A DNA stretch of 64,000 bases from Bacteroidales bacterium. GTDB lineage: Bacteria; Bacteroidota; Bacteroidia; Bacteroidales; UBA3663. Positions within the stretch are counted from its first letter, which is position 1. The number at the start of each line of letters is the position of its first letter. The DNA lies in NCBI GenBank assembly GCA_045627785.1, contig JAZQOF010000047.1:50199-114198 (forward strand), given 5' to 3'. Positions 3,192 through 39,823 of the stretch are shown here, piece after piece. The notes under the pieces were generated by a model. That model searched no databases and was not told the DNA's origin. It saw nothing but the letters and a program-made list of their open reading frames with translations. Made by a program: the position numbers and the translations under genes.

Positions 3192-3201
3192 TAAATAGAA
3201 T

Positions 3202-3249
3202 AATAATCGTCGGAAATTTTGGAATTTTCGGCGATTATTTATATTTTTG
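3202..3249 (+). terminator. hairpin terminator after the 5'-nucleotidase gene
   Basis: aataatcgtcg ... cggcgattatt forms an 11-bp stem (one G-U pair), followed by tatattttt. Confidence 0.55.
3242..3249 (+). promoter_or_regulatory. Bacteroidota -7 box (TAnnTTTG) upstream of the purF-like gene
   Basis: TATTTTTG lies 64 nt upstream of the ATG at 3313. Confidence 0.4.
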
Positions 3250-3312
3250 CAAATCTTTAAGAGGGATCCAACTAACCCGGATCTTATTAATTTATATTTA
3301 AGGTATTCAACT

Positions 3313-5818: not shown

Positions 5819-5843
5819 TTTTTCTTCTTTATAAAAAATAAAA

Positions 5844-5876
5844 ATAGCACTCCAGATTTGGGGTGCTATTTTTTTC
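5844..5876 (+). terminator. rho-independent terminator
   Basis: atagcactcc / ggggtgctat stem with a 6-nt loop, followed by a T7 run. Confidence 0.7.
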
Positions 5877-9200: not shown

Positions 9201-12200
9201 ACGCTCTGCAGACTTACATCCCAACTTTTCTCTATACCAGCGAAGATGACGTTAGGGTCGGCAGTGCTAAGGTCAAACTCTTTCTTTGTCTTGAACGAAA
9301 ACGCCGTGAGGGTGGCATGATAATAATAGGTGTCACCGATAACATACCAGTAATGCTGCTCTGGGAGTACGCCTCCGCACTCGTCAAAGCCCTTTGGCAG
9401 ACAGTCATCCACGATATACTGCTTTGTACTCTCTCCAGGACGAACGACACCCTCGAATACGAAGTTGCCTGATTCGTTCATGAAGGTTGCTGTCTCTGGA
9501 TGCTCCTTGTCGTAAGTATCCGCATGGACATTATCTGCATACACATAACCGCCACCTTCGCCAGGCTGTACATTAAGGAGCTTTACCTCTGCCACACCAA
9601 CGATAGGACCGTTATATGTTTTGTGCTCATCACCTTCATAGTACAGATTCTCCACATGCAGACTGAAACCACTGTTAATGCCTATCATGTTACGGGCAGT
9701 AGCGTAGTTACGTTGCTTGAAGGCGTTGGTAGCTGTCTCGAGCTTATCGGAAGCATAATAATTGGTGATGTATTCTTGTTTCTTGCTGCGGTAGGTGTAA
9801 GCATCCTGCAAAGCACCCGCTGCATCATGGAACTTACCCGAATGGAAGTCATCGTTTGTCACGATAGCACCAATGTAGTGGATGGTGTTATAGAAACCGA
9901 TATAGTTACGTGATTGTAGTGTTGTCCAGTCAGTAGCATACGTACCCGTAGGATCGATGTTTGAGTTCATACGCAACTCGCCAATACGAGCGAGAGAATA
10001 CTTACGCTTGTTAATCTCGTCTGTTGCAAAGTCCTCATCGCCGTAGAGTTTGAAGCAGCAGTCGTTGACCGTGAGGAGGTCAAGACGCTGGAGGGAGTTA
10101 AGCATGAGGGGATCGGAAGGAGTGGTTCCTGCATAGCCATAGCCATTGAGTTCTGCTGCACGGAAGCCCTCGCAGAACACCAGACGACCGTCGCCATATA
10201 TACCGCCGACTCCTGTGTATTCGCCAACAACATTGCCGTGCTCATCCTTCTTTGTAGTCTCAGTAGAAATTTTGATGTGGTCTTTTCCGCTACCTAAGTC
10301 AGAGATGATGATACTTGAGTTACCACCATAGCCAACGCTGGAGTTACCCTGGCTGTCAACGCCATGGTTATATGTCTCGGTGCTTGCCAGTGTAGTATAA
10401 GAACCGGCAATGGCAGCGGTAGAGTTACTCAATGAGAATCCACCGCCATAGACACCACCACGCACACGAATCTCTACGCTGTTCCAACCGCCGGTAGGAA
10501 AGATGGAAGTGTCATCAGGATTATTACCCTCATCGTGGAACTCGAAGTAGTCGTTATTTTGACGTGTAGCAGTATGAATGCTGCTAAGAGGTGTTATAGT
10601 CTCTGAGCCATGAAGTTTTACCTCAGTTATCTGGTCATACACATTACAAGGCACGTAGGTTCCTTCGAAGTACTTAATGCTCTTCTTGATGACAGACTCT
10701 GTCTTGCCATTACCCTTGGTCTGGTAATCTTCATTCCACTTATCTGCACGGTCGATGAAGTATTCACCCGACTGCTTGCAGACATAGAACTTAGGATAAC
10801 CCACCGTTACCTGTGCCGAACCATACATAGGCGCAGCAAAACTACCGCCTACAACATCCTTATACACCAGTCCGTCGTGAACATGAATTACTGAGTTACC
10901 CACGAGCATACCGTTACGTCCACCACCGAAGATATTGTTTACCGATGGGTGAATCCAACCCTCTGCATTCGGGATATCCTTCATATAGATGTAGGCATCA
11001 CCGAAGCTGCGTGACTCCGGACCATAGCCTGCGCCATATACATTAGCAACAGGGAGGTTCAGTTTGTTGGATTCATCAAGAGAAGGCTCTTTATAGTCAT
11101 CGATTGTTACACCGATTTGTCCATGGAGGTATCTTGAATACGCAAGCATATCTGACTCGATGTATATTTGAACATCGCCAACCATATCGCCCGACTGATA
11201 GCATCCGCCATAGACATTACAGCCGTCATGCCATGCCTTGCCATCAACCTTCCAGTCAACGCCATTATCTGTCTTGTCATAAACAAGGTAATCACCCACA
11301 GGAGCCTCATTTGCTACGGCATTCTTGTACTTTGGATCCATGTTCATACGGCGTGAATACCAGTCACCACGAATCTTCATACGAAGTTTGGTCTTGGTAG
11401 GCTGATAGTCAAGCGTTGCATCAGAAGCCACCGGCATACGGAAACCACCGCGATGCCACTTGCCCTTATATTGGAACGACGCATCCTTCGAGCCACCGAT
11501 AATACGTCCGAAGAAGTTCAGCGACTGCGGGAAGACGATATCCACCGGTTGTTCGGTCATCATCGAACCGGCATTACCACCCATACAGAAGGTACCAATC
11601 CATGTATTCTGGAAGGTATGACCCGAGAACTCGGTGAAGCCCAACGGCATCGCCTGCATATCCACCGCACTCATATATATCGACAGCAGGTTAGGATAGA
11701 TGCTCTTGACAAGGGCTTTCCTTTCGTCAGAAGCTGAAGACATACCATAGAATTCGAGCAGTTCACTCCAGTAGTCATCTGTCATATCTGTAGAGAAGTC
11801 AAGTCCGTTGATCTTCTCAAAGTTCACAAGGTAGTTGCTCGTACCATTGGCATCATACTTCATAGACTCCCCGTTAGAGCCCATGAACACCTCATTGACG
11901 ATGACGTTATCGCCAATATTGAACTTAACGTGAGCCTCTCCTAAACCATCACCTGCTGCACGGATAGTGGAAGCGTTACCACCACAATAAACAGAACCGA
12001 AGATATAAACCTTGTTATCCTCACCCTGACCCTGAATGTTAAGATAAGCCTTCGATACGTGCGGACGAATATTTGTGAGAGACACTAGCTGCTCAATTGG
12101 TGAGGCTTCTGCTTTACCCGGAATCCAATAAACATTATCATTCAACTCAGTATTCCAGACCTCTGCAATGTCACTCGTAACATGCTCACCTGTCTTGTCA

Positions 12201-15200
12201 TAAGCATAGAGATAGTTACCGTTACCAGCGCCATAGACATTACCAGTAATAGAGCCCGAGAGGTTTACGTTCGTGCCATTATATACAAAACCGCTGATAT
12301 CATTTCCGCCATAGACGTTGCCAATTTGACCAGCAAGAATGTTCACTGTTGCGCCGTATTCGTCTGCACCAAAAGTTTGAGGAGTCTCTGTGATATTGCC
12401 CTCGCCATCATCTGTATAAAGCGTTGCCTTCACATCACTCATACGGCAACCGCCATAGAGCGAACCGATATTAATATTGTCAGAGTCGATTGTGAGACTA
12501 AGCCCCTTTGTCTTGCCGGTAGCAGGAGAAGGGTTATAGTAAGTCATATCACCCATGTTACCACCGGAATAGACATTCTCAAGTTTGCCTTTCCACAGGT
12601 TCCATGTAGGCTGAATGGTCATCGTAGCTACGTTGTTGCCACCGAAAAGATTTACCACATGGTAAGGATCAATCTTCAAAGTGTTGTCTTCCCACTTATA
12701 ACCTGTACTCATTCCATTGAAGAACACCTTCGTCACGATGTTCTTTTGATAGTCATTGAAGGTAACATTTGCAAACTTGTTACTCTCGGCATTGGTGAAG
12801 ATATAGGTATCCTGGGTAATGGTAGCCTTGTTTCCACCACCGAAGGCACGAAGCGTAGTGCCACCTTCTACTTCCAATAAGGCTGTGGCTACGTCTGGCT
12901 TATGACCACTTTCTCCTTCTGATACCCATGCCTCTCCATTACCACCAGCGTATGCACTACCAATCATTGGAAAACCACGATCGGCAGAGTCATCATCGGC
13001 AGAGATTTCCACGTATGTATTGAACTTTTTGTTTGTAAGGCTTGGACGTGGTTTGCCATCACCATTCGGTGCAGCATTCCACTTACCTTCAGTAAACTTA
13101 GCCGGCATAGTACCGCTGATAGTACCTGCAATATCATTACCGCCATAGAGATTACATATAATAAGGTGGTTGGCATCGGTGATACCACGCGCCTTACCAT
13201 CGTATGCCCATACGTGCGCTGCACCGTGGATGTCTGCCTGACGGCTACCGCCATAGACATTATGTGCGAAACCTTCAGCCATCTCTACGAAGGTGTTGCC
13301 CTCGATGACACCCTTATAGCCACCACCATAAAGCGAACCGAGAAGCGTTCCCTGCTTACCTACTGCATAATACACGTTGGTGTTACCTGACACCGTTCCC
13401 ATATTCGAACCACCGAAGGCGTTGTAGATATAAGGGAACATACCAGCAGGATCTGCATCACCATGTGCTTCTAAGGCAATAGACTTGATATAGAGATACA
13501 CATCGCCATCAGAGTGGGTGTCGGCACCATAACCTGCACCATAGACGCTGAGGGCATTGTTGGTCTCTAGGTCGCCGGCATCGTCATAGATGTGCATATT
13601 GTCGTTCTTGTTGAAGAAGTACTTGTACTTATCATCCGTGCTGTTGGCACACTTAGGCGCGAGCCAGCAATGGTAATCCACCCATGAGTCACCCTCTATG
13701 AAGCCCGACAAGAAGCAACCGCCGAAGACGTTACCGCCATGAGCCTTGTATTCCGTCGCCTTTCCCTTACCGCTGCCATCGGTCTTTGCTAAAACCTCAG
13801 GCTCAAGAGCACACTTGAGGGTTAGATGAAGAAGGGTCTTGTCCTTGTTGGCAGAATAGAGTTTGGCCTTTGTCGCATCGTTTTCCTCTCCGTCTGAACC
13901 AGCGGTCATCGGCTCAAAGTATGATGTAGCATATTCTGCCTCATTTGCTCTTGGGTCAGCATGTACCTGATGTATATGCCTACCTTCAGGGCTGGAACTT
14001 ACACCCGTACTATTGATACTGAGTATTCCGCCGTTGAAGTTATAACGAATGATACTCTTGATATGAGCAGGATCTGGATGCTCTTCGTCCTCGTATTCCA
14101 GTCTTACATAGTCCGTACCCTGTGTCCAACCTGCAGGAACCGTAGTGGCATAATCGTAAACTCCATCGCCATTATTATCGATGAATTTACCATCGCTATC
14201 GGAGTCAAAGTAGTGATACTGCACATGAGCATTATACGCACCACCAACGATAGTATGACTCACCGTCACACCTTCTGGCAGAGTATAGTCGAACCTACCG
14301 TTCTCAAGAGTCTTTGCGCGCATTGAACCACGGAAGCCACCGCCCACGAAGTTGGCAAGCCAGATGTCTTCTGCATCATTAGGGATATTAAGGTGCACAT
14401 TATCGCTCCACACCATAATATTATTAAGGTACGCTTGGAATGGCAAAAGCTGCTGCTCTCGCGTCATTGGTTCACCCGCCTCAGAACCTACGGCAAAACC
14501 AGGATAGTATTTCTTTGCTGTATAATCAAAGAAGTGATGGTAGTAGTTGTCTTTAGTATATGCACCACTCTGCGTAGCAAGGTCTTTGCCTGAACAACCC
14601 ATAAAGAGTCCCGACACGTTCTCATCGTTGTCAATATACTTGCTGCCGTCAGCATCCTTAGCCAACTGCTCATGCGTACGACCGATGGTGACGTGTGAAC
14701 CGAGGCTGATATTAAGCGTACCACCGCCTTGGAAGTAGGCAGGGTCATCACGCACGAGGTGTGGGTTACCTGCGTATGTTGTAGTCAGCAAGGTTTTGTT
14801 CCACTCACCGATAGTGCAAGAGTTACCACCACCGAACACCTGACCAAGCACTTTCACGCGCTCGTCCTTTGTATTTCCTTCAAGCGTAAGGTTTACACCG
14901 CCGATTGTCTGCGGACGACCTACGTATGTCTTTCCCTTTGGACCATCATCTGCCGAATGATCCACCATGAAGTAGTTGTCATCACCGTGCGTTCCCAAGT
15001 CATACCTCAAAGCACCAGGGATATAATAGCCGATGTGGTTCCCGTTGCCAGCGCCATAGACATTACCCTTAATCTCACCTCCATAGATGGTAAGCTGTGC
15101 GATACCATTGACAGTTCCCGACACATCATTGCCGCCATAGACGTCGCCATAGATGGTAATCTTGTTCTGGTGCTGATCGTAAGTGTAGGAGCGAAGTTCT

Positions 15201-17542
15201 TTATTTGCTTCGTCAATGAACTTAGAGGTTGAGTATCTGTCAGTTCCGTTGGCATTCTTGCCTGATGTCTGCAAACCGATAGTTACATTTGTTGCAACCT
15301 TTGTAGAAGCACCTGCAGCATGAATATTACCCATCACAGCACCGCCATAGACATTCTCCAGAATGGTACCACGAGTAATGTCGAGATTCGTGCCTGCACA
15401 AGGCGCATAGTAGCCACCGCCATATACGAAGTGTACCAGCGACTGTGGGTCGTTACCCACATGCACATTGCACGTTCCACCCACCGTACCATTCAGTCCA
15501 CCACCAACGATACTGTGCAGGCCAGTACCCTTCTGGAGGTTGATGTCGCAATAGGCATTCTTGGTAACTGTTGCCTTGTTACCAAAACCGCCGCCAAAGA
15601 CAGAGAAGTGAGGCTTTGCCACATTCTCGATACACTCCTTGTAATAGTCGGTAGTTGCGAAGTTAGCCGGTGCTGTTGGTGCACCCACCATATATACGTG
15701 AGCATTTCCCTTTACGTCACATGCCATATTACCACCGCCATAGAGATTGTGGGTGATATCGCTCTCGGTGTTGCGCTTGTCACCAGCACTACTCTGGTCA
15801 AGGAATCGGCCAGTGACCTCGTTTGTCATCTCCACATCAGTAGCTGTTGATGGCAGGAACTCACGTGGTTTCCAATATTTACTATACTCAAGGTCTGCAT
15901 TCTCGAAATACACGTATGTATTTCCATAGATATCGGCAGAGGTTACGTCAGCGTCTCCTGTGCCTGGGTCATCACCGAAGCCACCGCCGAAAATGTCCTT
16001 TGCCACCATACCGTTGAGGACCGCCACATTGGTACAGCCATCGATGATGCCAGTAGCCATCGTTCGTCCTGATTCACCTTTCGATGCAGCGATTGTCTGA
16101 CAATTGAACACTGTACCCATATTACCACCGCCATAGACATGACTCCACACCTTAGTACCATTGAGCTCGACATTGGTGCTACCACAGACAGTACCTACGA
16201 ACATTGACATCGTCATCTGTGCCTTCGTACGACCATTGCCGCCACCGAAAGCACTACCGAGGATGTTACCGCCGTTGAGTTTTAGGGATGTAGTGAAGTC
16301 GAGTGTGGCAAGGCTCTTGTTCTGTTGTGCCACATGATCGGTCATTGTTGGGCGAGCGTTTTCGTTGTACCAGCCAGTATTAGCAATATCACCGCCACCA
16401 TAAACGTTACCGTAGATGATGGTAGTGTTGCCGCTGATGGTTACATCCGTCTCGCGCATCACTTGCGCGGCGTAGGTGTACGGCATCAAAACCTTACCTC
16501 CACCGTCGAAAGGACTATCTATTTCGTCCTCAGCCTCAATACCGGCACCACCACCGAAGACAGCACCATTGTAGAGTCCGCCCTGGATATCTACCTTCGT
16601 AGCACCATATACAGCACCTACATAACTATTAACGCCACCAGTAGCATCAGCACCTGACTTAGAACCCAATCCTCCACCAAAGACATTAAAGACAAAAGGC
16701 TGTCCCTTGATGGTTATGTTTGTCTGAGAGGTATAAGTCGTTTTGTCATATTTGATGCCACCGGCTCCAGCGTTGGCTGTAGCGTCGTATGCACCTACCG
16801 TACCATCGAAACCACCACCGAACACTGACGGAACGAACTGCGCAGACAGTTTAGTGTCCGGCTTCAGACGAAGACCGAGGCGGTCGATAGCCTCCAGTTC
16901 GGCATGCGTAAAGGCAACACCATCAGCAGGTTTGATGTCGGCAGTACCGGGGATATTGATGTTGATATTCGTATTGCCGGCCACATCAGTATGTGCACCA
17001 TAACCAGCACCGAACACCGAACAGATAGGTATCTTTTGCTGGTTCGGCTTCATAGAGTTGTCGTAGAAGTGGCGCCAAGCAGCCATAGCACGTTTGTCTG
17101 ATACAAAACTATAGGTAGTGATTATACCCTTCGTCATCTCGACATTAGTGTTTCCTGTCACATTACAAGCCAAGTTGCCACCACCGTATATATTACGCAG
17201 GTTATTCTCGTCACCAACGGTATAGACAATCTCGCCATCGTTGATAGACACACTGGTGCTTCCACTAATATCTGCCGAGGCTTTGACATCACCAATCTCG
17301 TGTCCGCCTCCGGCCTCAGTATAGAGTGCACCCTCGCCACCACCGAAGATACTACCGGCCAGCTGACCAGCATTGATGATCACGTTGGTGTTACCAGCTA
17401 CTTTCGCCATCTCACCACCGCCATAGACATTGCCACGGATCTGGATTGCACTCTTCGGCTCCGGGGAGGATTGTGCTTTAGTTACTTGGACTACTCCTGA
17501 CAGCAACAAAACTATGCTGTATATTATATATATTCTTTTCAT
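6203..17542 (-). CDS. giant secreted repeat protein (3779 aa): signal peptide, [FY]GGG-type beta-helix-like repeats, T9SS C-terminal sorting domain; candidate pilus-associated adhesin
   Basis: An uninterrupted 11.3-kb ORF with an ATG start overlapping the upstream stop (ATGA). The N-terminus MKRIYIIYSIVLLLSGVVQVTKAQ is a signal peptide. There are dozens of GN.YGGG....G.TNV..-like units. The C-terminus resembles a T9SS CTD. Confidence 0.9.
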   Translation of the reverse strand: MKRIYIIYSIVLLLSGVVQVTKAQSSPEPKSAIQIRGNVYGGGEMAKVAGNTNVIINAGQLAGSIFGGGEGALYTEAGGGHEIGDVKASADISGSTSVSINDGEIVYTVGDENNLRNIYGGGNLACNVTGNTNVEMTKGIITTYSFVSDKRAMAAWRHFYDNSMKPNQQKIPICSVFGAGYGAHTDVAGNTNININIPGTADIKPADGVAFTHAELEAIDRLGLRLKPDTKLSAQFVPSVFGGGFDGTVGAYDATANAGAGGIKYDKTTYTSQTNITIKGQPFVFNVFGGGLGSKSGADATGGVNSYVGAVYGATKVDIQGGLYNGAVFGGGAGIEAEDEIDSPFDGGGKVLMPYTYAAQVMRETDVTISGNTTIIYGNVYGGGDIANTGWYNENARPTMTDHVAQQNKSLATLDFTTSLKLNGGNILGSAFGGGNGRTKAQMTMSMFVGTVCGSTNVELNGTKVWSHVYGGGNMGTVFNCQTIAASKGESGRTMATGIIDGCTNVAVLNGMVAKDIFGGGFGDDPGTGDADVTSADIYGNTYVYFENADLEYSKYWKPREFLPSTATDVEMTNEVTGRFLDQSSAGDKRNTESDITHNLYGGGNMACDVKGNAHVYMVGAPTAPANFATTDYYKECIENVAKPHFSVFGGGFGNKATVTKNAYCDINLQKGTGLHSIVGGGLNGTVGGTCNVHVGNDPQSLVHFVYGGGYYAPCAGTNLDITRGTILENVYGGAVMGNIHAAGASTKVATNVTIGLQTSGKNANGTDRYSTSKFIDEANKELRSYTYDQHQNKITIYGDVYGGNDVSGTVNGIAQLTIYGGEIKGNVYGAGNGNHIGYYIPGALRYDLGTHGDDNYFMVDHSADDGPKGKTYVGRPQTIGGVNLTLEGNTKDERVKVLGQVFGGGNSCTIGEWNKTLLTTTYAGNPHLVRDDPAYFQGGGTLNISLGSHVTIGRTHEQLAKDADGSKYIDNDENVSGLFMGCSGKDLATQSGAYTKDNYYHHFFDYTAKKYYPGFAVGSEAGEPMTREQQLLPFQAYLNNIMVWSDNVHLNIPNDAEDIWLANFVGGGFRGSMRAKTLENGRFDYTLPEGVTVSHTIVGGAYNAHVQYHYFDSDSDGKFIDNNGDGVYDYATTVPAGWTQGTDYVRLEYEDEEHPDPAHIKSIIRYNFNGGILSINSTGVSSSPEGRHIHQVHADPRANEAEYATSYFEPMTAGSDGEENDATKAKLYSANKDKTLLHLTLKCALEPEVLAKTDGSGKGKATEYKAHGGNVFGGCFLSGFIEGDSWVDYHCWLAPKCANSTDDKYKYFFNKNDNMHIYDDAGDLETNNALSVYGAGYGADTHSDGDVYLYIKSIALEAHGDADPAGMFPYIYNAFGGSNMGTVSGNTNVYYAVGKQGTLLGSLYGGGYKGVIEGNTFVEMAEGFAHNVYGGSRQADIHGAAHVWAYDGKARGITDANHLIICNLYGGNDIAGTISGTMPAKFTEGKWNAAPNGDGKPRPSLTNKKFNTYVEISADDDSADRGFPMIGSAYAGGNGEAWVSEGESGHKPDVATALLEVEGGTTLRAFGGGNKATITQDTYIFTNAESNKFANVTFNDYQKNIVTKVFFNGMSTGYKWEDNTLKIDPYHVVNLFGGNNVATMTIQPTWNLWKGKLENVYSGGNMGDMTYYNPSPATGKTKGLSLTIDSDNINIGSLYGGCRMSDVKATLYTDDGEGNITETPQTFGADEYGATVNILAGQIGNVYGGNDISGFVYNGTNVNLSGSITGNVYGAGNGNYLYAYDKTGEHVTSDIAEVWNTELNDNVYWIPGKAEASPIEQLVSLTNIRPHVSKAYLNIQGQGEDNKVYIFGSVYCGGNASTIRAAGDGLGEAHVKFNIGDNVIVNEVFMGSNGESMKYDANGTSNYLVNFEKINGLDFSTDMTDDYWSELLEFYGMSSASDERKALVKSIYPNLLSIYMSAVDMQAMPLGFTEFSGHTFQNTWIGTFCMGGNAGSMMTEQPVDIVFPQSLNFFGRIIGGSKDASFQYKGKWHRGGFRMPVASDATLDYQPTKTKLRMKIRGDWYSRRMNMDPKYKNAVANEAPVGDYLVYDKTDNGVDWKVDGKAWHDGCNVYGGCYQSGDMVGDVQIYIESDMLAYSRYLHGQIGVTIDDYKEPSLDESNKLNLPVANVYGAGYGPESRSFGDAYIYMKDIPNAEGWIHPSVNNIFGGGRNGMLVGNSVIHVHDGLVYKDVVGGSFAAPMYGSAQVTVGYPKFYVCKQSGEYFIDRADKWNEDYQTKGNGKTESVIKKSIKYFEGTYVPCNVYDQITEVKLHGSETITPLSSIHTATRQNNDYFEFHDEGNNPDDTSIFPTGGWNSVEIRVRGGVYGGGFSLSNSTAAIAGSYTTLASTETYNHGVDSQGNSSVGYGGNSSIIISDLGSGKDHIKISTETTKKDEHGNVVGEYTGVGGIYGDGRLVFCEGFRAAELNGYGYAGTTPSDPLMLNSLQRLDLLTVNDCCFKLYGDEDFATDEINKRKYSLARIGELRMNSNIDPTGTYATDWTTLQSRNYIGFYNTIHYIGAIVTNDDFHSGKFHDAAGALQDAYTYRSKKQEYITNYYASDKLETATNAFKQRNYATARNMIGINSGFSLHVENLYYEGDEHKTYNGPIVGVAEVKLLNVQPGEGGGYVYADNVHADTYDKEHPETATFMNESGNFVFEGVVRPGESTKQYIVDDCLPKGFDECGGVLPEQHYWYVIGDTYYYHATLTAFSFKTKKEFDLSTADPNVIFAGIEKSWDVSLQSVKWLEAETPDASSKYWRDIRGGRDDALTSLDGSDVKYQFTLQVGDNSNSQPLWSNEMPRSTTDAEQITSQTWTAYNNTNTTPRFNVHLIDNVNNCPLNEEEEYYNNHLSVPENVQLIIKARKLDGKTDTNGEPTYEYKTYNVTLEIVYIQGPSFTGNVNIMNCALPGERIGFNSNGIQIKTTDQLPVTGFEWKLVPLKDDLSEGTYSWDESKGKIIPASFTTTSAEGYSQGSVPALYSQNHWNVYYVFRAGGEDFVVAPTTTDTDPLNKRMLVVHNYHKMADITADNYNVTLAAGEGNIYAKALKPGAMIYLADDADIAAFVSYVNGGNNGEGLNFYLQNDLTLLSAITNTFAGTLHGNGYSLTLPSAGGSLFGDKLAGKVYNLGVPNGTIASSGIVTNCFTNSDNANELKYGEKAYALSHYFKTTDSNDGYVHTLYANNDGMGGDWRYARVTDIYENARFLRTGAPNYGNMQTNHNTEHAGDYTLTEHDCLFFGQHLDKTNADAYPVHIDEAFSVKWVEANRVYQTVGYYQSKAEQKFHYNKDAWALQPTLTAIDFTKMTAEGDDTTTLPETFSVDSNKDYNATTGHVSQNLLVYNAGETVFDKKNEADIAEKDVVYHNIVKNAEVFSTDYFHLVDKQDFNAPIAFNVNKRAWYERYPQKYRNLIDTDNNNLVDYNSSSAWEGICLPFTATKVTAEKNGEISHFYGEIPTGEGAVNDRTLHHEYWLTGMVAANGDKATFARPAVSGEGLFVETNQATAKRDYTYQANDYFTSLFNYNDWYDTRDDEDDDTMGYHDKAWYAQSHTFTDYVPLTAAVPYIVAFPGDDFYEFSMESYYKTDAYGSEKYNQKATFESGPTTIKVSDDNAVSTTANGYTHFGTFLHKDSQLGINNAGSAFVSYENILPFRTYMTSPTRTRSIWINSTGENMTDMKEDLDDEGLKIWNEGLVIVVKTKEARSLNVFTADGAWLGILHCDAGTNRFQMDAEGIYLVGNTKLLLKN
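6206..6400 (-). other. T9SS (Por) type-A C-terminal sorting domain of the giant protein
   Basis: The last ~62 aa read GLKIWNEGLVIVVKTKEARSLNVFTADGAWLGILHCDAGTNRFQMDAEGIYLVGNTKLLLKN. The pattern (V.V.D..G......G.N......GIYLV....K....K) parallels known CTDs such as RgpB. Confidence 0.7.
10180..17440 (-). repeat. protein-level degenerate ~20-25 aa repeats with [FYV]-G-G-G/N core (predicted parallel beta-helix rungs)
   Basis: By eye there are about 18 strict [FY]GGG and more than 40 relaxed cores (VYGGGEMA, IFGGGEGA, VYGGNDVS, VYGAGNGN ...), often followed by G.TNV.I. Confidence 0.75.
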
Positions 17543-19659
17543 TCGCCTATAGTCACATTTGTATCGCCTGTTACCATTGCCTTGTTAGGATGTCCTTCTT
17601 CGCCCTGTCCTGCACCAAACACGTTACCGTCGATGATACCACCGAGGATGGTGACGTTGGTGTTGCCTTCTACTGCACCCTTGGCTCCGCCGCCGTAGAT
17701 GTTGCCGGTGAAGGTCCAAGATTCATTTGGACCTGTGAACTCTGGAATGTTAGGGTCAGCCCAAGTTGCTCGTGGTTTGAGAGTCTTTGGTTCAATCGTT
17801 ACTTTGGTGTTGCCATAGACTTTGGCGATATTGAGGAACTCAGTTTCTGCGCCCACTGCGCCTGTGGCTGCTACACCAGCACCGCCACCGTAGATATTGC
17901 CTGCTATAGAGCCACCATAAATGTTGACATTGGTATTGCCATAAACGGAGGCCACGGTGAGGAAATCTTTTTTCTTGTCATTAGCTGCCTTTGTATAGTA
18001 ATCGGTAGCACCAAAACCGCCGCCATATACGCCACCTCCTATTGTACCGCCATATACGTTTACATTGGTTTCACCCCAGAGAGAGCCAGCACCTGCCATT
18101 GTTACTGATACGTCCATTTCTACAGAATAACCATAACTACCACCGTAAAGACCGCCTTTAATGGTTCCACCATAGATATTAAGTACCGTAACGGTTTCTG
18201 CAAGATCTATTTCCTCATTCGCTTTGTACATGCTTGATATAACCTTGGTGATGGTCTTGCCTGCATCGTATGGTTGATATTTGATGCCCATGAAAGGATA
18301 TTTTGCGTTTGCTGTATTATCAACATACGGTATGTACTGGTCATTGGTGTTGTATTTGCCATCAGGACTTTTGAGTCCGCTTATACCTCCAGCAGATACG
18401 AACGCACCAGACTCAATTGTACCTCCGAACATATTCAATGTGCTATGTCCGTAGAATGCAGCATTGACCATACCTTTTGTGTTAGTACCAAGCGTAGCAC
18501 GACCAAGACAAGCAGCGTAATAACGTTGAAGGGTCACATCCACATCGTTTTCGGGGATTATGTTAGTAACTGTACGACCAAAGAAAGAGGAGTTAGAAAG
18601 TCCTGCATCTTTGGTTTGTTCAATGGACATACCCTGCATAGCTCCTACAAGGGTAGCGATCTTACCACGTTTGATATTGAATTGTACATCGCAGTACTCT
18701 GCACCTTGCGTCATGCCGGCACAAAGGAAGGCGATGTCATCTTTATCTTCTTTACCTCCGCGAGAGTTCCAAGCACCGGTAGAAGTCTCGGGATCAACAT
18801 CAACATTCACCACACACATAAGCGGATGGCTTGGGTTGCCGATTACATAACGTTTTTCAATGTCACTTTTATTAGTACCAGTGATACGATTACTCAGAAT
18901 TCGACCGAACTTGCCAGATTTGATGGTAAGCGTTACTGGCTTTGTTTGTGCCGGCCAACCTCCATCGTTAGAAGATGTGCTGAAATTATACGTGTTAGCA
19001 AATAAGAATACCTGCATGTCTGGTGCTCTTCGTCCAGAAGTTGCACCATTGGTTGTGGTTAAGTCAGAAGAAATATCCATCACGCATCCAACGTCAAACA
19101 TGCAGTCGTGCAGATACATTGACAAAAAAGCAGAAGCACCTCCAAAACGGACATACTTGAACTTTGTATCCGCTCCAATGCGAGTAGTTCCTTTATCGAC
19201 AGTACCGTTATGAGCACTTGAATTCAGATACACTCTGCCACCTGCCTTTACCTTGGCTGCTGTAGTATTATCTGCATCCCAAGGCCAAACACCTGTGATG
19301 GTGGCAGGAATACCATTGGTACCATTTCCTTTGGCTATGGTTTCGTCTATAAAGAGGTTGCCTGATCCCTGTGCATTACGAACCACAATAATATTGCTAT
19401 CCCAGGCAGCATCGCGGTCGGCATCGGTGGTGCCTGTGTAGGCAGGGAGCAGTTTATAAGCTTGAGCCCATGTCTTTACTGCATTGGCCTCTGTCGAACC
19501 ATCTTTCGAGTCGTTACCCTCACCAAGCTTCAGATACACCACGTTATAGGTCTCATCCACGCCATCGCTGTCGTAGTCGTGATATTCAATTCCTGCCCAC
19601 GCCGCATTCACGCAACCCAGGAGTGCTATCAGGAGTATGTATATTCGTTGTTTCATCAT
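17539..19659 (-). CDS. secreted YGGG-repeat protein (706 aa), paralogous in its C-terminal third to the giant protein; no T9SS CTD
   Basis: Signal peptide MMKQRIYILLIALLGCVNAAWA. The C-terminal third has units such as NIYGGTIKGGLYGGSYG, VNVYGGTIGGGVYGGGFG, NIYGGSIAGNIYGGGAG and GNIYGGGAKGAVEGNTNVTI. Confidence 0.85.
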   Translation of the reverse strand: MMKQRIYILLIALLGCVNAAWAGIEYHDYDSDGVDETYNVVYLKLGEGNDSKDGSTEANAVKTWAQAYKLLPAYTGTTDADRDAAWDSNIIVVRNAQGSGNLFIDETIAKGNGTNGIPATITGVWPWDADNTTAAKVKAGGRVYLNSSAHNGTVDKGTTRIGADTKFKYVRFGGASAFLSMYLHDCMFDVGCVMDISSDLTTTNGATSGRRAPDMQVFLFANTYNFSTSSNDGGWPAQTKPVTLTIKSGKFGRILSNRITGTNKSDIEKRYVIGNPSHPLMCVVNVDVDPETSTGAWNSRGGKEDKDDIAFLCAGMTQGAEYCDVQFNIKRGKIATLVGAMQGMSIEQTKDAGLSNSSFFGRTVTNIIPENDVDVTLQRYYAACLGRATLGTNTKGMVNAAFYGHSTLNMFGGTIESGAFVSAGGISGLKSPDGKYNTNDQYIPYVDNTANAKYPFMGIKYQPYDAGKTITKVISSMYKANEEIDLAETVTVLNIYGGTIKGGLYGGSYGYSVEMDVSVTMAGAGSLWGETNVNVYGGTIGGGVYGGGFGATDYYTKAANDKKKDFLTVASVYGNTNVNIYGGSIAGNIYGGGAGVAATGAVGAETEFLNIAKVYGNTKVTIEPKTLKPRATWADPNIPEFTGPNESWTFTGNIYGGGAKGAVEGNTNVTILGGIIDGNVFGAGQGEEGHPNKAMVTGDTNVTIGE

Positions 19660-19694: not shown

Positions 19695-20717
19695 TTAATT
19701 AATTGTCAAGTGTTTATTATCATGCTCTGAGAGCACATAAAGGTAATCAGGATTGATTGTAATTGTCAGATCGTAGTACTTGCCGGCTTCAAGTGAACTG
19801 ATAGGATCATTAAGAGATTTAAGCGTGACCTTATTGGTGGCGGTAACGCCTTTGCGAGTAAGATGTGCTGCAGAAATGTCATCTTTGTCATAGATGTCGT
19901 ATGTACACTTGAATGTCAACTCACTGCTGGTAGTAATTCCACCATCGCCTGTAGTGCGGATATATGCACAGGCATAAGGCGTAGCTGAACCGGACAACTT
20001 CATGCCAGGAAGAGGGTTTTCCGAGGTTCCTCCCACATTGGCATCGTTACCCAGAAGCAAGGTCTGATCATTGATTGTGACCTCACGTAGCACAATATCG
20101 CGAATCTGCAAATACTTATTACTTACCACAAACTTTAGACGGAGCAAAGCTGTGCGATGCTTGAGTGTAAAGAGCAGGTGATCTCGATAATTTTCATTAA
20201 CGGGATATCCTGTTGCATCGCTTGACATATAATCACATGCACCGATGGCAGGTATGTTGGAGAACGATAAGAGTATATTACTCGCAGGTTTATCTGTTGC
20301 ATTTCCATTATCCAGCATATAATACGCCACCATTCCTCCTCGGCGAGCATCTCCGCGTGAGATTGGGCACTTTCTCAGTTCTTCGTTCTCCATTGAGAAA
20401 AACTTATGATATGGCTTATACCCGTCAGGTTCCTTGCTCGTCTCAGGGGTTTCTTTAGAATCATTTTTGACGTAGAACATTTCTTTGTCAGGCACATTGA
20501 TGCATATCCATGCTGGTGTTGGAGTCGTGATAATTCCACTCAGGAAGTCAGGCAAAGCTCGTGTATCATTCCCTGCACGTCCATCTAGCCACGTTGAAGT
20601 GACCATGATGGAGAGCGGAGCTTCTTCATCAAGAAATTCTACATGCTCGTCAGTGCAACCGGCAGACAACAATGACGCAGCAAGAATGATGTATTTATTA
20701 AAGAATTTGATTCTCAT
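19695..20717 (-). CDS. type-V-pilin-like lipoprotein (accessory/tip candidate)
   Basis: The ATG at 20717 gives MRIKFFNKYIILAASLLSAGC (lipobox). It has GRA/TRA Arg-Ala sites at aa 46-54 after a short strand (LSIMVTS). Confidence 0.6.
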   Translation of the reverse strand: MRIKFFNKYIILAASLLSAGCTDEHVEFLDEEAPLSIMVTSTWLDGRAGNDTRALPDFLSGIITTPTPAWICINVPDKEMFYVKNDSKETPETSKEPDGYKPYHKFFSMENEELRKCPISRGDARRGGMVAYYMLDNGNATDKPASNILLSFSNIPAIGACDYMSSDATGYPVNENYRDHLLFTLKHRTALLRLKFVVSNKYLQIRDIVLREVTINDQTLLLGNDANVGGTSENPLPGMKLSGSATPYACAYIRTTGDGGITTSSELTFKCTYDIYDKDDISAAHLTRKGVTATNKVTLKSLNDPISSLEAGKYYDLTITINPDYLYVLSEHDNKHLTIN

Positions 20718-20745
20718 TTTTATTATTTGCGTTTGCAAGCAGCAA

Positions 20746-21951
20746 TTACCAGTTAGTCCATTGGTCAGAAGTGCTACCACCAGACTGCCATTCTGTTATG
20801 TTGGCATCGACGAAAAGCAAACCGCCTTCAAGTACCTTGAAAATATATGTGTACTGGTAATTGGGTTTCCAGTGCATGTAAGCGGATGGGACGATAGCCG
20901 TCTTGGGCTCAGTATCACCATCAACGTTTACAGAGAACTTATAGTCGGGAGCGGTGACATCAGTACCTGTTGGAAGGACGTAGTAGAATGTTTGATTATC
21001 CTTATTGGATTCTTCTGCGTCTTTTGGATAAGCTACAGCGGCAGTGTTTGATGCACAATTCTCAGAAGTGAGCTTTAGTACTTTGCCACTACCTGCTATT
21101 GAGGCATCGAAACCCTTGAATTCGAATTTATCGAGATAAGACTCAGTCTGAGAAACTATGCTGTAAGACTCAGAATTTTTGTCAGAAAGAGGATAAGTGA
21201 CGTTGATTGTGGCTGATTTTACAATCTTCGGTTCTTCAACGTTAGGTCCGAACGAAATATCAGTAAGTTCGATAGCATCGCCTTCGTTACCATCTTGTGG
21301 CGCTTCGAGTTTTTCTCCTGAATAAACCATGACACGAACCTTGGCGTATGGTCGTATGAATTCCATTTGTACTACTTTCCCGAAATCTCCTTTTGGAACT
21401 GTCTTCAAAGATGAAATATAATAGCCAGTCTGTTCGGTTATTCCAAGCAGAAGTCCTTCAATCGTTAATGTCTTTCCATCATTAGTAGGAGATATTTTAT
21501 CGTCGTTTTCAACATATCCCCAATAACGGTATTCGTTAGCAGAATAATCCCAATACTTGATTTCCTGCTTTATATTATTTATTGAAGTTCCTCCTACATA
21601 AGAGAAACCATGTGAATTATCTTCCGATGTTTCTGATGAATTATCAGAATACTTTACATTATAGCCATTGAATACAATCTGTGAAGAATTATCAGTTTTT
21701 ATCTTATATCCATATACAACAAAGTCTTTATCTAGAGCTTTCGATGCGCGAGTGTTTGCGCCCGCACGCGTAGAAGAAATCTCTTCTTGCAGGATTGAGG
21801 AAAATGACACAGCTGCATGCTGCTCCGGAGTCGGATCAGGTGTTGGTGTTACTTCTATGTCTGGCTGTATGATGCCATTAGGATCATCGTTGTTGCATGA
21901 AATGGCAAGCATTGCAGAAAAAGAGAGTATATATGGTATGTAACTTTTCAT
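20746..21951 (-). CDS. fimbrillin-family (type V pilin) lipoprotein
   Basis: Lipobox MLAISC and TRA sites at aa 61-63 and 67-69. It shares IKYWDYSA and WKPNY.YTYIFK motifs with the 580-aa neighbour. Confidence 0.7.
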   Translation of the reverse strand: MKSYIPYILSFSAMLAISCNNDDPNGIIQPDIEVTPTPDPTPEQHAAVSFSSILQEEISSTRAGANTRASKALDKDFVVYGYKIKTDNSSQIVFNGYNVKYSDNSSETSEDNSHGFSYVGGTSINNIKQEIKYWDYSANEYRYWGYVENDDKISPTNDGKTLTIEGLLLGITEQTGYYISSLKTVPKGDFGKVVQMEFIRPYAKVRVMVYSGEKLEAPQDGNEGDAIELTDISFGPNVEEPKIVKSATINVTYPLSDKNSESYSIVSQTESYLDKFEFKGFDASIAGSGKVLKLTSENCASNTAAVAYPKDAEESNKDNQTFYYVLPTGTDVTAPDYKFSVNVDGDTEPKTAIVPSAYMHWKPNYQYTYIFKVLEGGLLFVDANITEWQSGGSTSDQWTNW

Positions 21952-22009
21952 TTTTGACGGTCTATATACATTATTATATATACGCGCGCGATTTTTTTAT
22001 ACATCAACC

Positions 22010-22037
22010 ATGCGAGGAACAATTATATCCCTCGCAT
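22010..22037 (-). other. stem-loop in the 113-nt gap after the 580-aa pilin gene
   Basis: atgcgagg ... cctcgcat forms an 8-bp stem. No U-tract follows on the minus strand. Confidence 0.35.
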
Positions 22038-22064
22038 AGCTAATATTATTTATGAATAGATTGA

Positions 22065-23807
22065 TTACTGAACCTTGATTACCTTAACGTAGTTTTTTGA
22101 ACCGTCGGTGTACTGGAATACATAGGTCTTGCCCGACGCCACAGTAAATTTGCAAGCAGAAACAGCAAGTGTATTACCATCTGAGGCAGGAACTTCACTT
22201 ACTAATTCATAACCACATGAAGCCAAAGTAATGCCAGTATCATGCTTACTTCCATTCAACTGATCCTGTACAAGAGTCTCTGTAATAATCTTTGGATCTG
22301 TTGCTGTAGCAATATAAACAGCGACACCAGCAGGAGCAGTGAGTGAACTGAGATCAACCGCAGTAGTCTTATTCATTACAGAAGCATAAATATCACCAGC
22401 CTTATACTCGTTACCTGAAGTTACTACCTTACCAGCCTGATAAGTTGTAATAGAAGGAGTAGAAACTGTTGTAATAGTCTCCTGAATGCCGTCCTCGGTA
22501 TCCACTACGACAGCATCGAAGGTGATTGGTGTGAGACCCTGAACAACATTTCCAGAACCATCAACACCTGTCCACCCATTAGTAGCATCAGAAATCTTGA
22601 AGATGTAGGTGTATGCATAATTTGGTTTCCAGTCAGCATAAGCAGCAGGAACTACAGCACTTGCATCACGAACGTGAATTGTCTCGTCAGAGCCATCAGT
22701 AGATACAAGATCATATTCGATGCGAATCTGAAGATTGTCCTTTGTTCCAAGAGGAAGGACGGTCTGATAGTAATTGTTTGAGGCAGCACCTGCATAAGTA
22801 GCTGTATTAGAAGTACGGCCAAGATAATCTCCGTCAGCTTCAGAATCATCTTTAGTCTCTTTGTAGTCAAGTGTACCAAAAGTCATTGTCTTTACAAGTG
22901 CATCTCCTGTTTCACTACCAGCAGCAAACTTGACGTGAGCCAGGTTATAGTCAGAACTCAATGTTCCATTTGAAGAATTTGCCCAACCAACGGTAGGATA
23001 GTAAACGCTCATCGTACCCTTAGAGGTTGCTGATGGGAAAACTTTACTTGCGGCAAAGAGAGTTGCTTTGTCTTCACCTACAGTTGTAGTCTTCGAGCCA
23101 TCCCATGCGGCATTATAGAACTTAACATTCTTTACAGAGTATCCAGGAACAGTCTCATATAATGCGACACGAACCTTAGCACCAAGACTGCGGAATTTAA
23201 GAGTTACAGTCTTTCCAAACTCACTAACGCCATCACGATTATATACTGTTACGAGATCCGCAATATATGCAGAAGCAAGTTCTTCTGCTGATCCCTTTAG
23301 GGTATATACAGCATCAGATGTGCCAAGTTTGGTATAATCAATTTTTGAAAGAGTTGCAAAGGTTTTTTCTGTTGAAGAAGTACTCGAAACACCAGTACCA
23401 TACGAGAATCCGACAAAGTCATACTGTGTTGCTGAATAGTCCCAATACTTGATATTCTGAGCAGAGGCACTAGAAAGAGTATGTTTTGTTTGGCCGACAT
23501 ATTCCCAACCAGCTACGTTTGTCTCTGTTTTATTTGCGCTATCTTCAATATAGTTTACATTATAGTGGTCAAAGACCTTAGTTTTAGTAGAACCATCACC
23601 CTTGATACCCATAACAACGAAATTGTTATTGAGCAATCCTGCAGCGGTCGACCCTTCTGCACGTGTTTGCGCCTTTGTACCAGAGTCAAAAAGAATCGGC
23701 TTATCACCATTGATGGTGTGCTGAGCTTCTTCCGAGCCTAAAAACTCATTGTCAGCACACCCCGCTAATAGCAAGGCTGACAAAGAAGTTAATAAAACTT
23801 TTTTCAT
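22065..23807 (-). CDS. fimbrillin-family (type V pilin) lipoprotein, candidate major/stalk subunit
   Basis: Lipobox LLLAGC and TKAQTR|AEG at aa 44-52. It shares motifs NIKYWDYSATQY and YADWKPNYAYTYIFK with the 401-aa paralogue. Confidence 0.7.
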   Translation of the reverse strand: MKKVLLTSLSALLLAGCADNEFLGSEEAQHTINGDKPILFDSGTKAQTRAEGSTAAGLLNNNFVVMGIKGDGSTKTKVFDHYNVNYIEDSANKTETNVAGWEYVGQTKHTLSSASAQNIKYWDYSATQYDFVGFSYGTGVSSTSSTEKTFATLSKIDYTKLGTSDAVYTLKGSAEELASAYIADLVTVYNRDGVSEFGKTVTLKFRSLGAKVRVALYETVPGYSVKNVKFYNAAWDGSKTTTVGEDKATLFAASKVFPSATSKGTMSVYYPTVGWANSSNGTLSSDYNLAHVKFAAGSETGDALVKTMTFGTLDYKETKDDSEADGDYLGRTSNTATYAGAASNNYYQTVLPLGTKDNLQIRIEYDLVSTDGSDETIHVRDASAVVPAAYADWKPNYAYTYIFKISDATNGWTGVDGSGNVVQGLTPITFDAVVVDTEDGIQETITTVSTPSITTYQAGKVVTSGNEYKAGDIYASVMNKTTAVDLSSLTAPAGVAVYIATATDPKIITETLVQDQLNGSKHDTGITLASCGYELVSEVPASDGNTLAVSACKFTVASGKTYVFQYTDGSKNYVKVIKVQ

Positions 23808-23848
23808 AATAGTTGATTTATTTTAATTAGTGTTATTAATATATTTTC

Positions 23849-25042
23849 TTAATCTTTTACGTCAAATTCATGTGTTTCATCTACCCACTCCTGAACTACT
23901 GCATCGAAACCGGAACCGCCGTTACGACCAGGAGAGCGGATAGTGTCCATATCCAATTCAACTGTGATCACACCACCGCGGAAACGTCTGATGACCTGAT
24001 CGGTGACATCGAAGTAGAGTGTCGAGTCATTACCGTTACCGAATATCAAATTGACATCCATGTAATGTCGCTGATTTCGTATCTGTTCAGGTATCTGAAG
24101 ATGATAGCGGTAGTCAAATGGATTGATGCCTCGTATTCCGAATGTTGTCAGACGACCTCCTACGATATCGACCTCCTCATTGCGATGCGTGTCATAAACA
24201 TTCTGTTTAAGGCGAGTGTTGTAATGTACTGCAACAGGATCGTTGCCTGCAATGCCTGTGTTGAGTGTTGTCGAATAGGCAAAATTCGACAGGTTGGCAT
24301 TACCATCTGTTCCTACAACCTTACCCCAGTTGTGATGAATGATAACCTGTGTGAGGTAAATATACACCACAGGATTCAGGAGCATGTCTATATATTTGTA
24401 ATATGTATCATGCACTTCGTCGTAATAATCATAATCCTCGATATTCTTGCTGATATAGACTTTCTTTTTTTCGGCAGCATATAGCTCTTCCGGCTGGTTG
24501 TATGCATAAGCTCGTGTAGAGTGATAGCGTGTGCCGTAATTTGTTTCATTCGTGTAAGCTGTAATCGAGTCAAGTGTTGTCTCTTCGTCGATTACAATGC
24601 TCTGAGCGACATCCCGTGACTCTATCTCGTTATAGACGAGGAAATCGTAATAACCGAAGTTATAAGTCGATGTGAACGAATGACCGTGTATCTGATCTCG
24701 TAATACTGTTGTATGCTTTGCCAACGTGTCGTGTCCGAGATAATAGCGGCGTATATTGAAGTCCTCAGGTAATGTGTATCCGATAGGACCGAAAAGAAGG
24801 CTGTCTGTTTCATCCCATCCGTAACGCCATTCCTTTCGCCAATCGTAAACTGTATCGTAGCCGAACTCGTACAGGAGATCGTAGTTCCAGACGACATCGA
24901 AGTCAAGAACTACTTTCGGAAATTTTACATCGATGTCAATCTCTTCGCGAAGATGCAATGGTGGAATAGGATCACAACCTCCTATAATACTAGTGAAGAG
25001 TAGCGCAACGGTAACATACATGGCACGCAATAGCTGTTTCAT
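23849..25042 (-). CDS. lipoprotein (DUF5119-like from memory), candidate pilus anchor/assembly component
   Basis: The ATG at 25042 overlaps the upstream stop (ATGA). Signal and lipobox read MKQLLRAMYVTVALLFTSIIGGC. It occupies the position after the DUF3575-like gene, as in Bacteroidales fimbrial loci. Confidence 0.5.
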   Translation of the reverse strand: MKQLLRAMYVTVALLFTSIIGGCDPIPPLHLREEIDIDVKFPKVVLDFDVVWNYDLLYEFGYDTVYDWRKEWRYGWDETDSLLFGPIGYTLPEDFNIRRYYLGHDTLAKHTTVLRDQIHGHSFTSTYNFGYYDFLVYNEIESRDVAQSIVIDEETTLDSITAYTNETNYGTRYHSTRAYAYNQPEELYAAEKKKVYISKNIEDYDYYDEVHDTYYKYIDMLLNPVVYIYLTQVIIHHNWGKVVGTDGNANLSNFAYSTTLNTGIAGNDPVAVHYNTRLKQNVYDTHRNEEVDIVGGRLTTFGIRGINPFDYRYHLQIPEQIRNQRHYMDVNLIFGNGNDSTLYFDVTDQVIRRFRGGVITVELDMDTIRSPGRNGGSGFDAVVQEWVDETHEFDVKD

Positions 25043-34723: not shown

Positions 34724-34750
34724 ATCCGATGACCTTTGTAAAAACTGCAA

Positions 34751-38939: not shown

Positions 38940-38944
38940 AAATT

Positions 38945-39820: not shown

Positions 39821-39823
39821 CAG

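Follow-up and report, generated by a model that had tools for sequence, protein, structure and literature searches.

Probable fission of a giant beta-helical surface protein gene into separately signaled modules in gut Bacteroidales

The window analyzed here (the whole stretch of 64,000 nucleotides at positions 50,199 to 114,198 of the forward strand of contig JAZQOF010000047.1, assembly GCA_045627785.1) derives from a Bacteroidales bacterium and contains a pair of adjacent minus-strand genes, both defined as open reading frames (ORFs) and by their translations. The upstream gene (17539..19659) encodes a protein of 706 aa, hereafter the head, which belongs to a rare family of ~650-750-aa proteins that are all annotated as hypothetical. 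The terminal gene (6203..17542) encodes a giant protein of 3779 aa. The two genes are joined by an ATGA stop/start overlap on the minus strand (17539..17542; 'tcat' on the plus strand), in which the head stop, GGC GAA TGA, overlaps the giant start, ATG AAA AGA, and their reading frames lie one base apart at this junction. This arrangement had been described in a first-pass annotation made from the sequence alone, and its coordinates and all of its quoted peptide strings were verified. Both proteins carry coils of the GNxYGGG/GxTNVxI type and each has its own signal peptide. The two had also been called paralogous, a term that overstates the relationship, given that their likeness is confined to the repeats (BLASTP E 1e-7; 34-47% identity over 40-140 aa).

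The head begins with a signal peptide of the signal peptidase I type (residues 1-22, MMKQRIYILLIALLGCVNAAWA with cleavage before G; 19594..19659, minus strand). It is followed by a non-YGGG domain that defines the family (residues 23-480; 18220..19593, minus strand), with a cap-like start (YNVVYLKLG..DGS..AV.TW..AY.LL) and putative beta-helix rungs. From what is known of the starts of beta-helices, we take the first residues of this domain to be an N-cap, and treat them as a candidate cap. The motif map places YGGG coils in the C-terminal part (residues 481-706; 17542..18219, minus strand), which ends on the strand GDTNVTIGE without a C-terminal cap. The last 55 residues (..GNIYGGGAKGAVEGNTNVTILGGIIDGNVFGAGQGEEGHPNKAMVTGDTNVTIGE; 17542..17706, minus strand) constitute the most conserved segment of the family and are proposed as a docking face. 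We collected 113 homologues of the head (41-94% identity, most of 645-760 aa), all of them without a name and none with a Pfam domain, and 111 of the 113 stop within ~12 aa of the same terminal strand.

The family alignment also bears on the maturation of the head, for which either an LLGC lipobox or an AWA↓G signal peptidase I site had been suggested (the arrow marks cleavage). The W[AGS]x cleavage motif is found in 108 of the 113 homologues and the lipobox-like Cys in only 31, and the head is therefore best regarded as a substrate of signal peptidase I and not as a lipoprotein. A sorting domain is likewise lacking at its C-terminus, which consists of the coil strand ..GDTNVTIGE and matches no family; the earlier claim that only the downstream protein bears a type IX secretion system (T9SS) tail is borne out in this respect. 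The AlphaFold2 (AF2) model of the head is almost entirely beta (predicted local distance difference test, pLDDT, 90.1; predicted TM-score, pTM, 0.91). Its last element is a strand at residues 700-704 and the chain ends at 706, leaving no room for a C-terminal cap. Searches of the model against PDB with Foldseek returned mostly beta-helix proteins, including GH136, pectate lyase, tailspikes, EtpA, Fap2 and HpmA, all of them weak matches (E >= 0.1, TM <= 0.23). No match to Pfam Beta_helix or Chlam_PMP was obtained. A specific fold assignment was consequently abandoned, with nothing in PDB better than E 0.1 and generic beta-helix proteins only. A two-partner secretion arrangement (TpsA/TpsB) was also considered and rejected: POTRA, ShlB and TPS (Haemagg_act) gave no match in the head, the giant, the five genes upstream or the downstream neighbor that was scanned, and HpmA appears solely as a weak match of fold.

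The giant opens with a signal peptide of its own (residues 1-23, MKRIYIIYSIVLLLSGVVQVTKA followed by Q, cleavage TKA↓Q; 17474..17542, minus strand), read from the sequence and laid out in the same way in orthologues. The first coil, IQIRGNVYGGGEMAKVAGNTNV, starts 10 residues after the signal peptide, which agrees with the earlier statement that the giant restarts with a signal peptide and then resumes the same repeats. The mature protein has at most a 9-residue linker and no N-cap before this coil. Its first ~3 coils (residues 24-98; 17249..17473, minus strand) form an N-terminal cassette that matches the type of the upstream partner. The putative beta-helix coils of YGGG type extend over residues ~33-2410 (10313..17446, minus strand; motif map), and 42 of the 43 YGGG-like motifs lie within residues 40-2405. 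The C-terminal third (residues ~2411-3718; 6389..10312, minus strand) is free of repeats, carries the motifs HLVDKQDFNAPI and PFRTYM, conserved in the alignment, and matches no Pfam or NCBIfam entry. Neither database, in fact, holds a match for the head or for the giant as a whole. A homologue search with the last 899 aa of the giant returned 15 proteins only, all of them unnamed.

The extreme C-terminus of the giant (residues ~3719-3779; 6206..6388, minus strand) is accepted as a diverged type A T9SS C-terminal sorting domain (CTD), an assignment drawn from its homologues and from its predicted fold. Among homologous C-termini, 9 of 14 match TIGR04183 (best E 1.7e-6) and one matches PF18962 at 0.0086. 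Furthermore, a profile of the C-termini of the giant family matches residues 278-335 of the 344 residues of Hbp35 (PDB 5y1a) with E 0.0028, a segment that we take to be the CTD of that protein. The AF2 model of the last 600 aa is of low confidence except for the last 60 aa, which are predicted to form seven strands (pLDDT 75-86). With this segment, Foldseek retrieved the CTDs of RgpB (7pq4, 5ag8, 5hfs) and of translocon-bound RemA (8gl6_D), with a probability of 1.0 and E 0.01-0.04. The T9SS tail postulated in the first-pass annotation thus finds support in homologues and fold, but not in a direct model match of the window sequence, which returns neither TIGR04183 nor PF18962 even at E <= 10.

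The relationship between head and giant becomes apparent in their relatives. An exhaustive phmmer search with the non-repeat domain of the head (residues 24-480) recovered only 28 clusters among 1.84 billion representatives. These clusters include P0134 (4847 aa) and P0135 (5487 aa), proteins in which the head domain is embedded in a giant polypeptide at residues ~830-1660 (830-1477 in P0134). Past the head domain, colinear giant-like sequence continues to a CTD-like end, with 42% identity in P0134 and 35% in P0135 over 3,800-4,400 aligned columns; residues 274-3778 of the window giant align with residues 1334-4847 of P0134 at 42% identity over 3815 aligned columns. In most relatives a single ORF of 4,900-5,500 aa encodes all the parts: a signal peptide and an N-terminal extension come first, the head domain and a long, putatively beta-helical YGGG stretch follow, and the non-repeat region and type A CTD complete the protein. 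The sequence of P0134 and P0135 runs straight through the junction, and where the window has a stop and a signal peptide P0134 has a short loop between coils. A metagenome scan with the N-terminus of the giant produced 80 loci, mostly from the human gut, and the head domain was present upstream in the same ORF in 80/80, at residues ~570-1450 of ORFs of 4,900-5,450 aa. The single-ORF family is common in human-gut metagenome contigs (L081-L160; e.g., L095 6704-21595 and L082 5312-21568). Its members have a CTD-like end, ..GIYIFGNRKIMVK, none is named in any source, and the one that was searched had no Pfam match.

A scan of species-representative genomes returned orthologous loci, all of them from metagenome-assembled genomes (MAGs) of horse-gut-type Bacteroidales. 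At 17 split loci a head is followed by 0-2 middle modules and then by a terminal module, all co-oriented and each with a signal peptide. Coil boundaries are the sites at which the gene is cut, giving 2-4 ORFs, of which only the last bears the CTD. The heads of the split clade have 650-750 aa and end in ..KAxVTGxTNVTIGE. The middle modules have 900-1630 aa, start with ..AQ↓TIKGNVYGGG, their first coil being at mature residue 2-3, and end in ..GGGNEAxVSGDTNVKIG. The terminal giants have 3300-3980 aa with the CTD at the end. A middle module is absent from the window, whose giant shares 80-84% identity with the terminal modules of L004 and L007, two loci that include a middle module. An intermediate is found in locus L006, where head and middle module form one protein of 2022 aa without a remnant of a signal peptide at the junction.

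Since fused versions are widespread, whereas split ones occur in one clade only, the head and giant of the window very probably arose by fission of one giant gene. The comparison of fused and split versions in related genomes had been suggested by the first-pass annotation as a check, and the outcome, with the fused form as the widespread state in P0134, P0135 and all 80 metagenome loci, strongly supports its second option, the split of one gene whose downstream part acquired a new signal peptide. An apparent split could in principle also be produced by a frameshift or an assembly error that cut one ORF or left a pseudogene. The reading frames are indeed one base apart at the junction and the data on the relatives come from MAGs. 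However, the downstream ORF opens with a complete signal peptide that has no counterpart at that place in the fused proteins, the same cut point recurs in >100 independent sequence clusters with intact ORFs, and the ratio of nonsynonymous to synonymous substitution rates (dN/dS) is ~0.2 for both genes. These observations rule out an artefact for practical purposes, and we give that explanation almost no weight.

The overlap that joins the two genes is not conserved. A 4-nt ATGA overlap is by itself a common feature of operons. It recurs in L161, whose head is 94% identical to that of the window, and in L005 and L009. Other junctions have a 3-nt spacer (L163 and L024) or 9-67 nt, and an unrelated gene stands between modules in L004, L013, L023, L032 and L162. 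Because spacers or inserted genes replace ATGA at other loci, translational coupling by the overlap appears to be a local detail, specific to a lineage, and it is the adjacency of modules that is the rule.

Signatures of selection were examined in both genes. Relative to homologues of 84-94% identity, dN/dS amounts to 0.17-0.31 in the head and to 0.17-0.19 in the N-terminal part of the giant, values which indicate that both are under purifying selection. Conservation over the last 55 aa of the head averages 0.82, against 0.63 for the protein, and ranks 8 of 629 windows so scored. The two sides of the junctions also vary in concert. After a head-type C-terminus (16 junctions) the downstream protein starts with GNVYGGG-[EQN][MLAI].., and after a middle-type C-terminus (6 junctions) it starts with GNVYGGG-[DN][QE]A.., so that the first coil matches the type of the upstream end in 22 of 22 junctions with no exception. 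The giant of the window is a mosaic in this regard: its orthologues are terminal modules preceded by a middle module, yet its first coil is of the type found after a head (EMAKV.GNTNV). At the DNA level, codons ~36-97 match L024 (82%), and L004 and L007 match only from codon ~98. A recent recombinational loss of the middle module was considered as the origin of this mosaic and is not supported, the 5' cassette being only 69% identical to the 5' ends of middle modules; an older deletion of that module could still account for it. Overall, the matching of coil types fits selection for a cognate interface.

Our best explanation is that a fiber gene was split and that its halves are reassembled after synthesis, a reading to which we assign, as a whole, a probability of roughly 0.55. 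Head and giant would each be exported by the Sec pathway and cleaved by signal peptidase I. In the periplasm, the uncapped C-terminal coil of the head would stack on the uncapped first coil of the giant to give one continuous beta-helix. The T9SS would then recognize the single CTD and export the folded complex, whose CTD end would be anchored to the cell and whose head, with its capped N-terminal domain, would form the distal tip of a long adhesive fiber. The ATGA overlap, one of several junction types, would only couple translation such that both halves are made together.

The components of this mechanism deserve different degrees of confidence. End-to-end stacking is consistent with the anatomy read from sequence and models, namely uncapped facing ends and a cut in phase with the coils, and uncapped beta-solenoids are known to self-assemble end to end (PMC7034853). 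We consider the odds even that the two halves still work as one physical fiber. The further step, in which the giant with its CTD would carry the head across the outer membrane, is offered tentatively, with odds nearer to one in three. It is prompted by the fact that the T9SS moves folded proteins (PMC9251779) and that the head has no outer-membrane route of its own, which together make docking on the giant in the periplasm the simplest way to the surface. Its lack of a CTD, a lipobox or a known outer-membrane route also makes doubtful the earlier notion that the two partners are separately exported. In a broader scenario, about as tentative, the T9SS would export a non-covalent, multi-subunit beta-helical fiber. 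CTD-less heads and middle modules would dock, coil on coil, with the CTD-bearing terminal module in the periplasm and hitch-hike through the SprA translocon, and heads, including orphan and long ones from other places in the genome (see below), would serve as exchangeable distal tips of a modular adhesin that can be re-assorted rapidly.

The orientation of such a fiber can be deduced from the fused relatives, in which the head lies N-terminal to the fiber and the CTD at the far C-terminus; for this reason the head should be the distal part. It is established for the T9SS that type A CTDs are cleaved off and that the C-terminus so created is attached at the cell surface. The first-pass annotation had placed the 706-aa protein at the opposite end, as a cell-proximal base from which the exported giant extends, an arrangement that can be compared to that of the curli nucleator CsgB and the fiber subunit CsgA. 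Two solenoid proteins with compatible ends that are separately exported by Sec would suit that idea, and curli are indeed separately secreted beta-solenoid subunits able to stack (PMC10192328). But every fused relative has the head on the N-terminal side and, opposite it, the CTD, which by established knowledge of the T9SS marks the cell-anchored end. Moreover, the head has no membrane anchor and its free end faces the N-terminus of the giant, far from the CTD. The proposed polarity is thus probably reversed, and a basal head seems very improbable.

Several observations weigh against reassembly and joint export. We know of no T9SS cargo that carries a CTD-less partner out of the cell, the window giant itself matches no CTD model (as noted above), and no component of the T9SS machinery was found among the window genes that were scanned. 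In-phase boundaries and a mosaic N-terminus can also be by-products of plain recombination between repeats, in which no interface is selected, and the 22 junctions do not count as separate observations in phylogenetic terms. Unrelated genes between the head and its partner in several loci indicate that tight coupling is not required. Finally, one head is an orphan (L014 6401-8641), followed by genes on the opposite strand and by no YGGG module. The expectation that the two genes stay together in orthologous loci, on which the first-pass annotation had staked its claim of partnership, is thus partly contradicted by L014, although most loci keep an adjacent YGGG module. The literature that was searched contained no paper on this protein family or on piggyback export by the T9SS.

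In a second explanation, the fission is real and the pieces no longer cooperate. The giant alone would be a shorter exported fiber without its old tip, and the head would remain in the periplasm or travel in vesicles with a function of its own, for example as a chaperone or cap that prevents aggregation of the N-terminal coil of the giant before export. The head indeed has no CTD, lipobox or known outer-membrane route, an orphan head exists in L014, the MAG E4_MB2_73 has several head paralogues (L014, L023, L025 and L032), and insertions between head and partner are tolerated. Against an independent role, the head has kept both its fold-defining domain and the place that it occupies in the fused proteins, its cut end is its most conserved part, the first coil downstream tracks the type of the upstream end, and a YGGG module stays adjacent in nearly all loci. 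We regard independent function of the head as a minority possibility, carrying something like a quarter of the weight.

Five co-oriented genes on the minus strand (19695..26496), identified by Pfam matches and lipoboxes, resemble a type V pilus operon of Bacteroidales and end 35 nt upstream of the head gene on the same strand. They encode a DUF3575 outer-membrane protein (25039-26496; Pfam 7.7e-13), a DUF5119-like lipoprotein (23849-25042; DUF5119 1.5e-5, 25.3 bits against a cut-off of 27) and three lipoproteins (22065-23807, 20746-21951 and 19695-20717), the last three recognized by lipoboxes read from the sequence. Four lipoboxes are readable in the block, and a match to Mfa_like_1 reaches 0.03 (14.8 bits against a cut-off of 27). 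The mechanically assigned ORF starts of two of the lipoprotein genes (23849-25123 and 19695-20780, minus strand) are too far upstream. Internal Met codons (MKQLLRAMYVTVALLFTSIIGGC near 25042 and MRIKFFNKYIILAASLLSAGC near 20717) mark the beginning of their lipoprotein signal peptides, and with these starts the apparent overlaps with the preceding genes disappear. The same block lies before the head in 10 other loci, whereas 8 split loci and the fused P0134 locus (L080) lack it. An obligatory link of the module train to the pilus-like operon is thereby ruled out. Between the pilus-like genes and the head, locus L005 has a further gene (9172-9819, which equals L001 9217-9864) for a PF05635 protein, of the family associated with intervening sequences of 23S ribosomal RNA (2e-6, below the curated cut-off). 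The Avd proteins of diversity-generating retroelements are members of PF05635.

The proximity of the block raises the possibility that the pair provides accessory or tip components of a type V (Mfa/Fim-like) pilus, with the giant in a role akin to that of Mfa5 of Porphyromonas gingivalis and the head helping in the joining. Mfa5 has a length of about 1,200 aa. It is the product of the mfa1 operon that sits at the pilus tip and bears a T9SS-targeting C-terminal domain (PMC7835359), and its setting in an operon of lipoprotein pilins recalls the pilus-like genes that precede the CTD-bearing giant and its head. The DUF3575, DUF5119-like and three lipoprotein genes 35 nt upstream on the same strand, and the recurrence of this block ahead of the head in 10 other loci, speak for this interpretation. 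Mfa5, however, contains a von Willebrand factor domain and an isopeptide bond (PMC7835359), whereas the giant is a putative beta-helix three times longer, without a von Willebrand factor A domain or any similarity to Mfa5. In addition, the pilin assignments fall under the curated cut-offs and no pilus genes accompany the module train in 8 split loci and the fused P0134 locus, making the link facultative. A tip function within the pilus is accordingly judged unlikely, though less so than a basal head; it is compatible with the split and reassembled fiber rather than opposed to it.

Comparison with known systems helps to separate what is familiar in the locus from what is new. The closest relatives, the unsplit ~5,000-aa homologues (P0134, P0135 and L081-L160), have the head domain, YGGG fiber, PFRTYM region and CTD-like end of the window pair in the same order, but they are single polypeptides with one signal peptide and an extra N-terminal extension of 560-1000 aa. 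SprB and RemA of Flavobacterium johnsoniae, and RgpB and Hbp35 of P. gingivalis, the latter two being cargo with type A CTDs, offer the same general layout as the giant, that of a very large repetitive surface protein with a Sec signal peptide and a C-terminal beta-sandwich sorting domain of ~60-80 aa, and have no sequence similarity to it outside the CTD. Known T9SS adhesins are single polypeptides, whereas here a separate, CTD-less gene supplies part of the protein. The locus is best read as that of a T9SS beta-helical adhesin whose gene has undergone fission into pieces with separate signal peptides.

Two further systems illuminate the proposed reassembly. Split adhesin genes are exemplified by siiE of Salmonella Typhi, which in its split form is usually regarded as decaying. 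This giant adhesin of the type I secretion system is encoded by two genes, and the authors speculate that the products act together (PMC12269683). Like the window pair, siiE represents a lineage-specific fission of a giant repetitive adhesin gene. Unlike the pair, it has immunoglobulin-like repeats, uses type I secretion and needs no new signal peptide. The split in the Bacteroidales clade, for its part, is an old one whose products have diversified and are under purifying selection. Curli CsgA and CsgB and engineered uncapped beta-solenoids are separately secreted and stack through open coil ends (PMC10192328, PMC7034853), the same principle that we propose for head and giant. Curli have no homology to the pair, however, and their small subunits homopolymerize outside the cell and use CsgG, whereas for head and giant we envision a hetero-stack in which very large subunits join in a fixed 1:1 (up to 1:1:1:1) proportion.

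As a rule, each protein exported by the T9SS carries a C-terminal sorting domain of its own. In the present case a giant cargo protein is cut into 2-4 pieces, all of which are under purifying selection and only the last of which retains the sorting domain. Two outcomes can be envisaged, reassembly of the pieces ahead of export or a new periplasmic role for the N-terminal 700-aa domain. Reassembly, if true, would mean that the T9SS carries passengers without a signal of their own and that the open ends of beta-helices act as natural, specific connectors. Piggyback export, if true, would to our knowledge constitute the first natural case for the T9SS and the first hetero-stacked beta-solenoid fiber from a fissioned gene. 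Regardless of mechanism, the analysis delineates a family of ~5,000-aa surface proteins that is widespread, though unannotated, among Bacteroidales of human and animal guts, and the location of its domain boundaries at coil boundaries is useful for annotation and for the engineering of beta-solenoid proteins.

Other features of the family enrich this picture. Besides ordinary heads there are 'long heads' of 1,270-3,180 aa (L011 12132-17012; L012 12199-17010; L032 5756-12571; P0139-P0146), which carry an N-extension that starts from ..AWA↓DTWDGT..GSGTxxxPYxI, continue into a head-like domain and mostly end at the usual cut (..KAKVTGNTNVIVDSEWTEP). In L011 and L012 the long head comes after an ordinary head, and one locus can thus encode two alternative heads. 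At least three more head loci (L023, L025 and L032) occur in E4_MB2_73, the MAG with the orphan head.

Foreign genes are also found within the module trains. A protein of 510-523 aa is encoded between the head and the next module in four loci (L013 12261-13832; L023 2326-3882; L032 13537-15069; L162 12121-13674). It has no signal peptide, starts with MNK..QPWRIVAAEIIAATKADP.SLRSIYED and gave no Pfam match when the copy in L013 was scanned. In L162 the inserted gene overlaps the head stop (TAATG) and its 3' end overlaps the ORF of the next module. The insert could represent a mobile element or else an accessory gene with a cytoplasmic product. A protein of 454-492 aa (L008 10737-12101; L017 2202-3680) shows a weak match to an IS200-like Y1 transposase in the L008 copy, and a 266-aa protein (L004 12326-13126 and L032 12601-13401) has a phosphoribosyltransferase-like C-terminus in the L004 copy. 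Genes for both interrupt or flank the train, and module junctions seem to be insertion hot spots.

Transcription signals around the pair were sought with a promoter and terminator scan, which showed no enrichment over shuffled sequences and used the sigma-70 consensus, not applicable to Bacteroidota. It detected no terminator-like site between head and giant on the coding strand. The sole noteworthy site was a perfect 15-bp palindromic hairpin, AAAAATAGCACTCC..GGGGTGCTATTTTT, with A and T runs at its flanks (5840..5873, without strand). It is placed between the giant gene and a convergent amidotransferase-like gene (4775-5455), and is likely a bidirectional terminator that closes the operon.

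Elsewhere in the window, a 507-aa protein with a Pfam Beta_helix match, unrelated to the YGGG family, is encoded beside a sulfatase and a radical SAM/SPASM protein that may be a sulfatase maturase (31617-33140, plus strand, and 33554-36337, minus strand). A restriction-modification cluster on the plus strand (38145-41803) combines two different type II endonuclease genes, one EcoO109I-like (38145-38939) and one TdeIII-like (38945-39820), followed by the gene for a 659-aa C5 cytosine methyltransferase (39824-41803).

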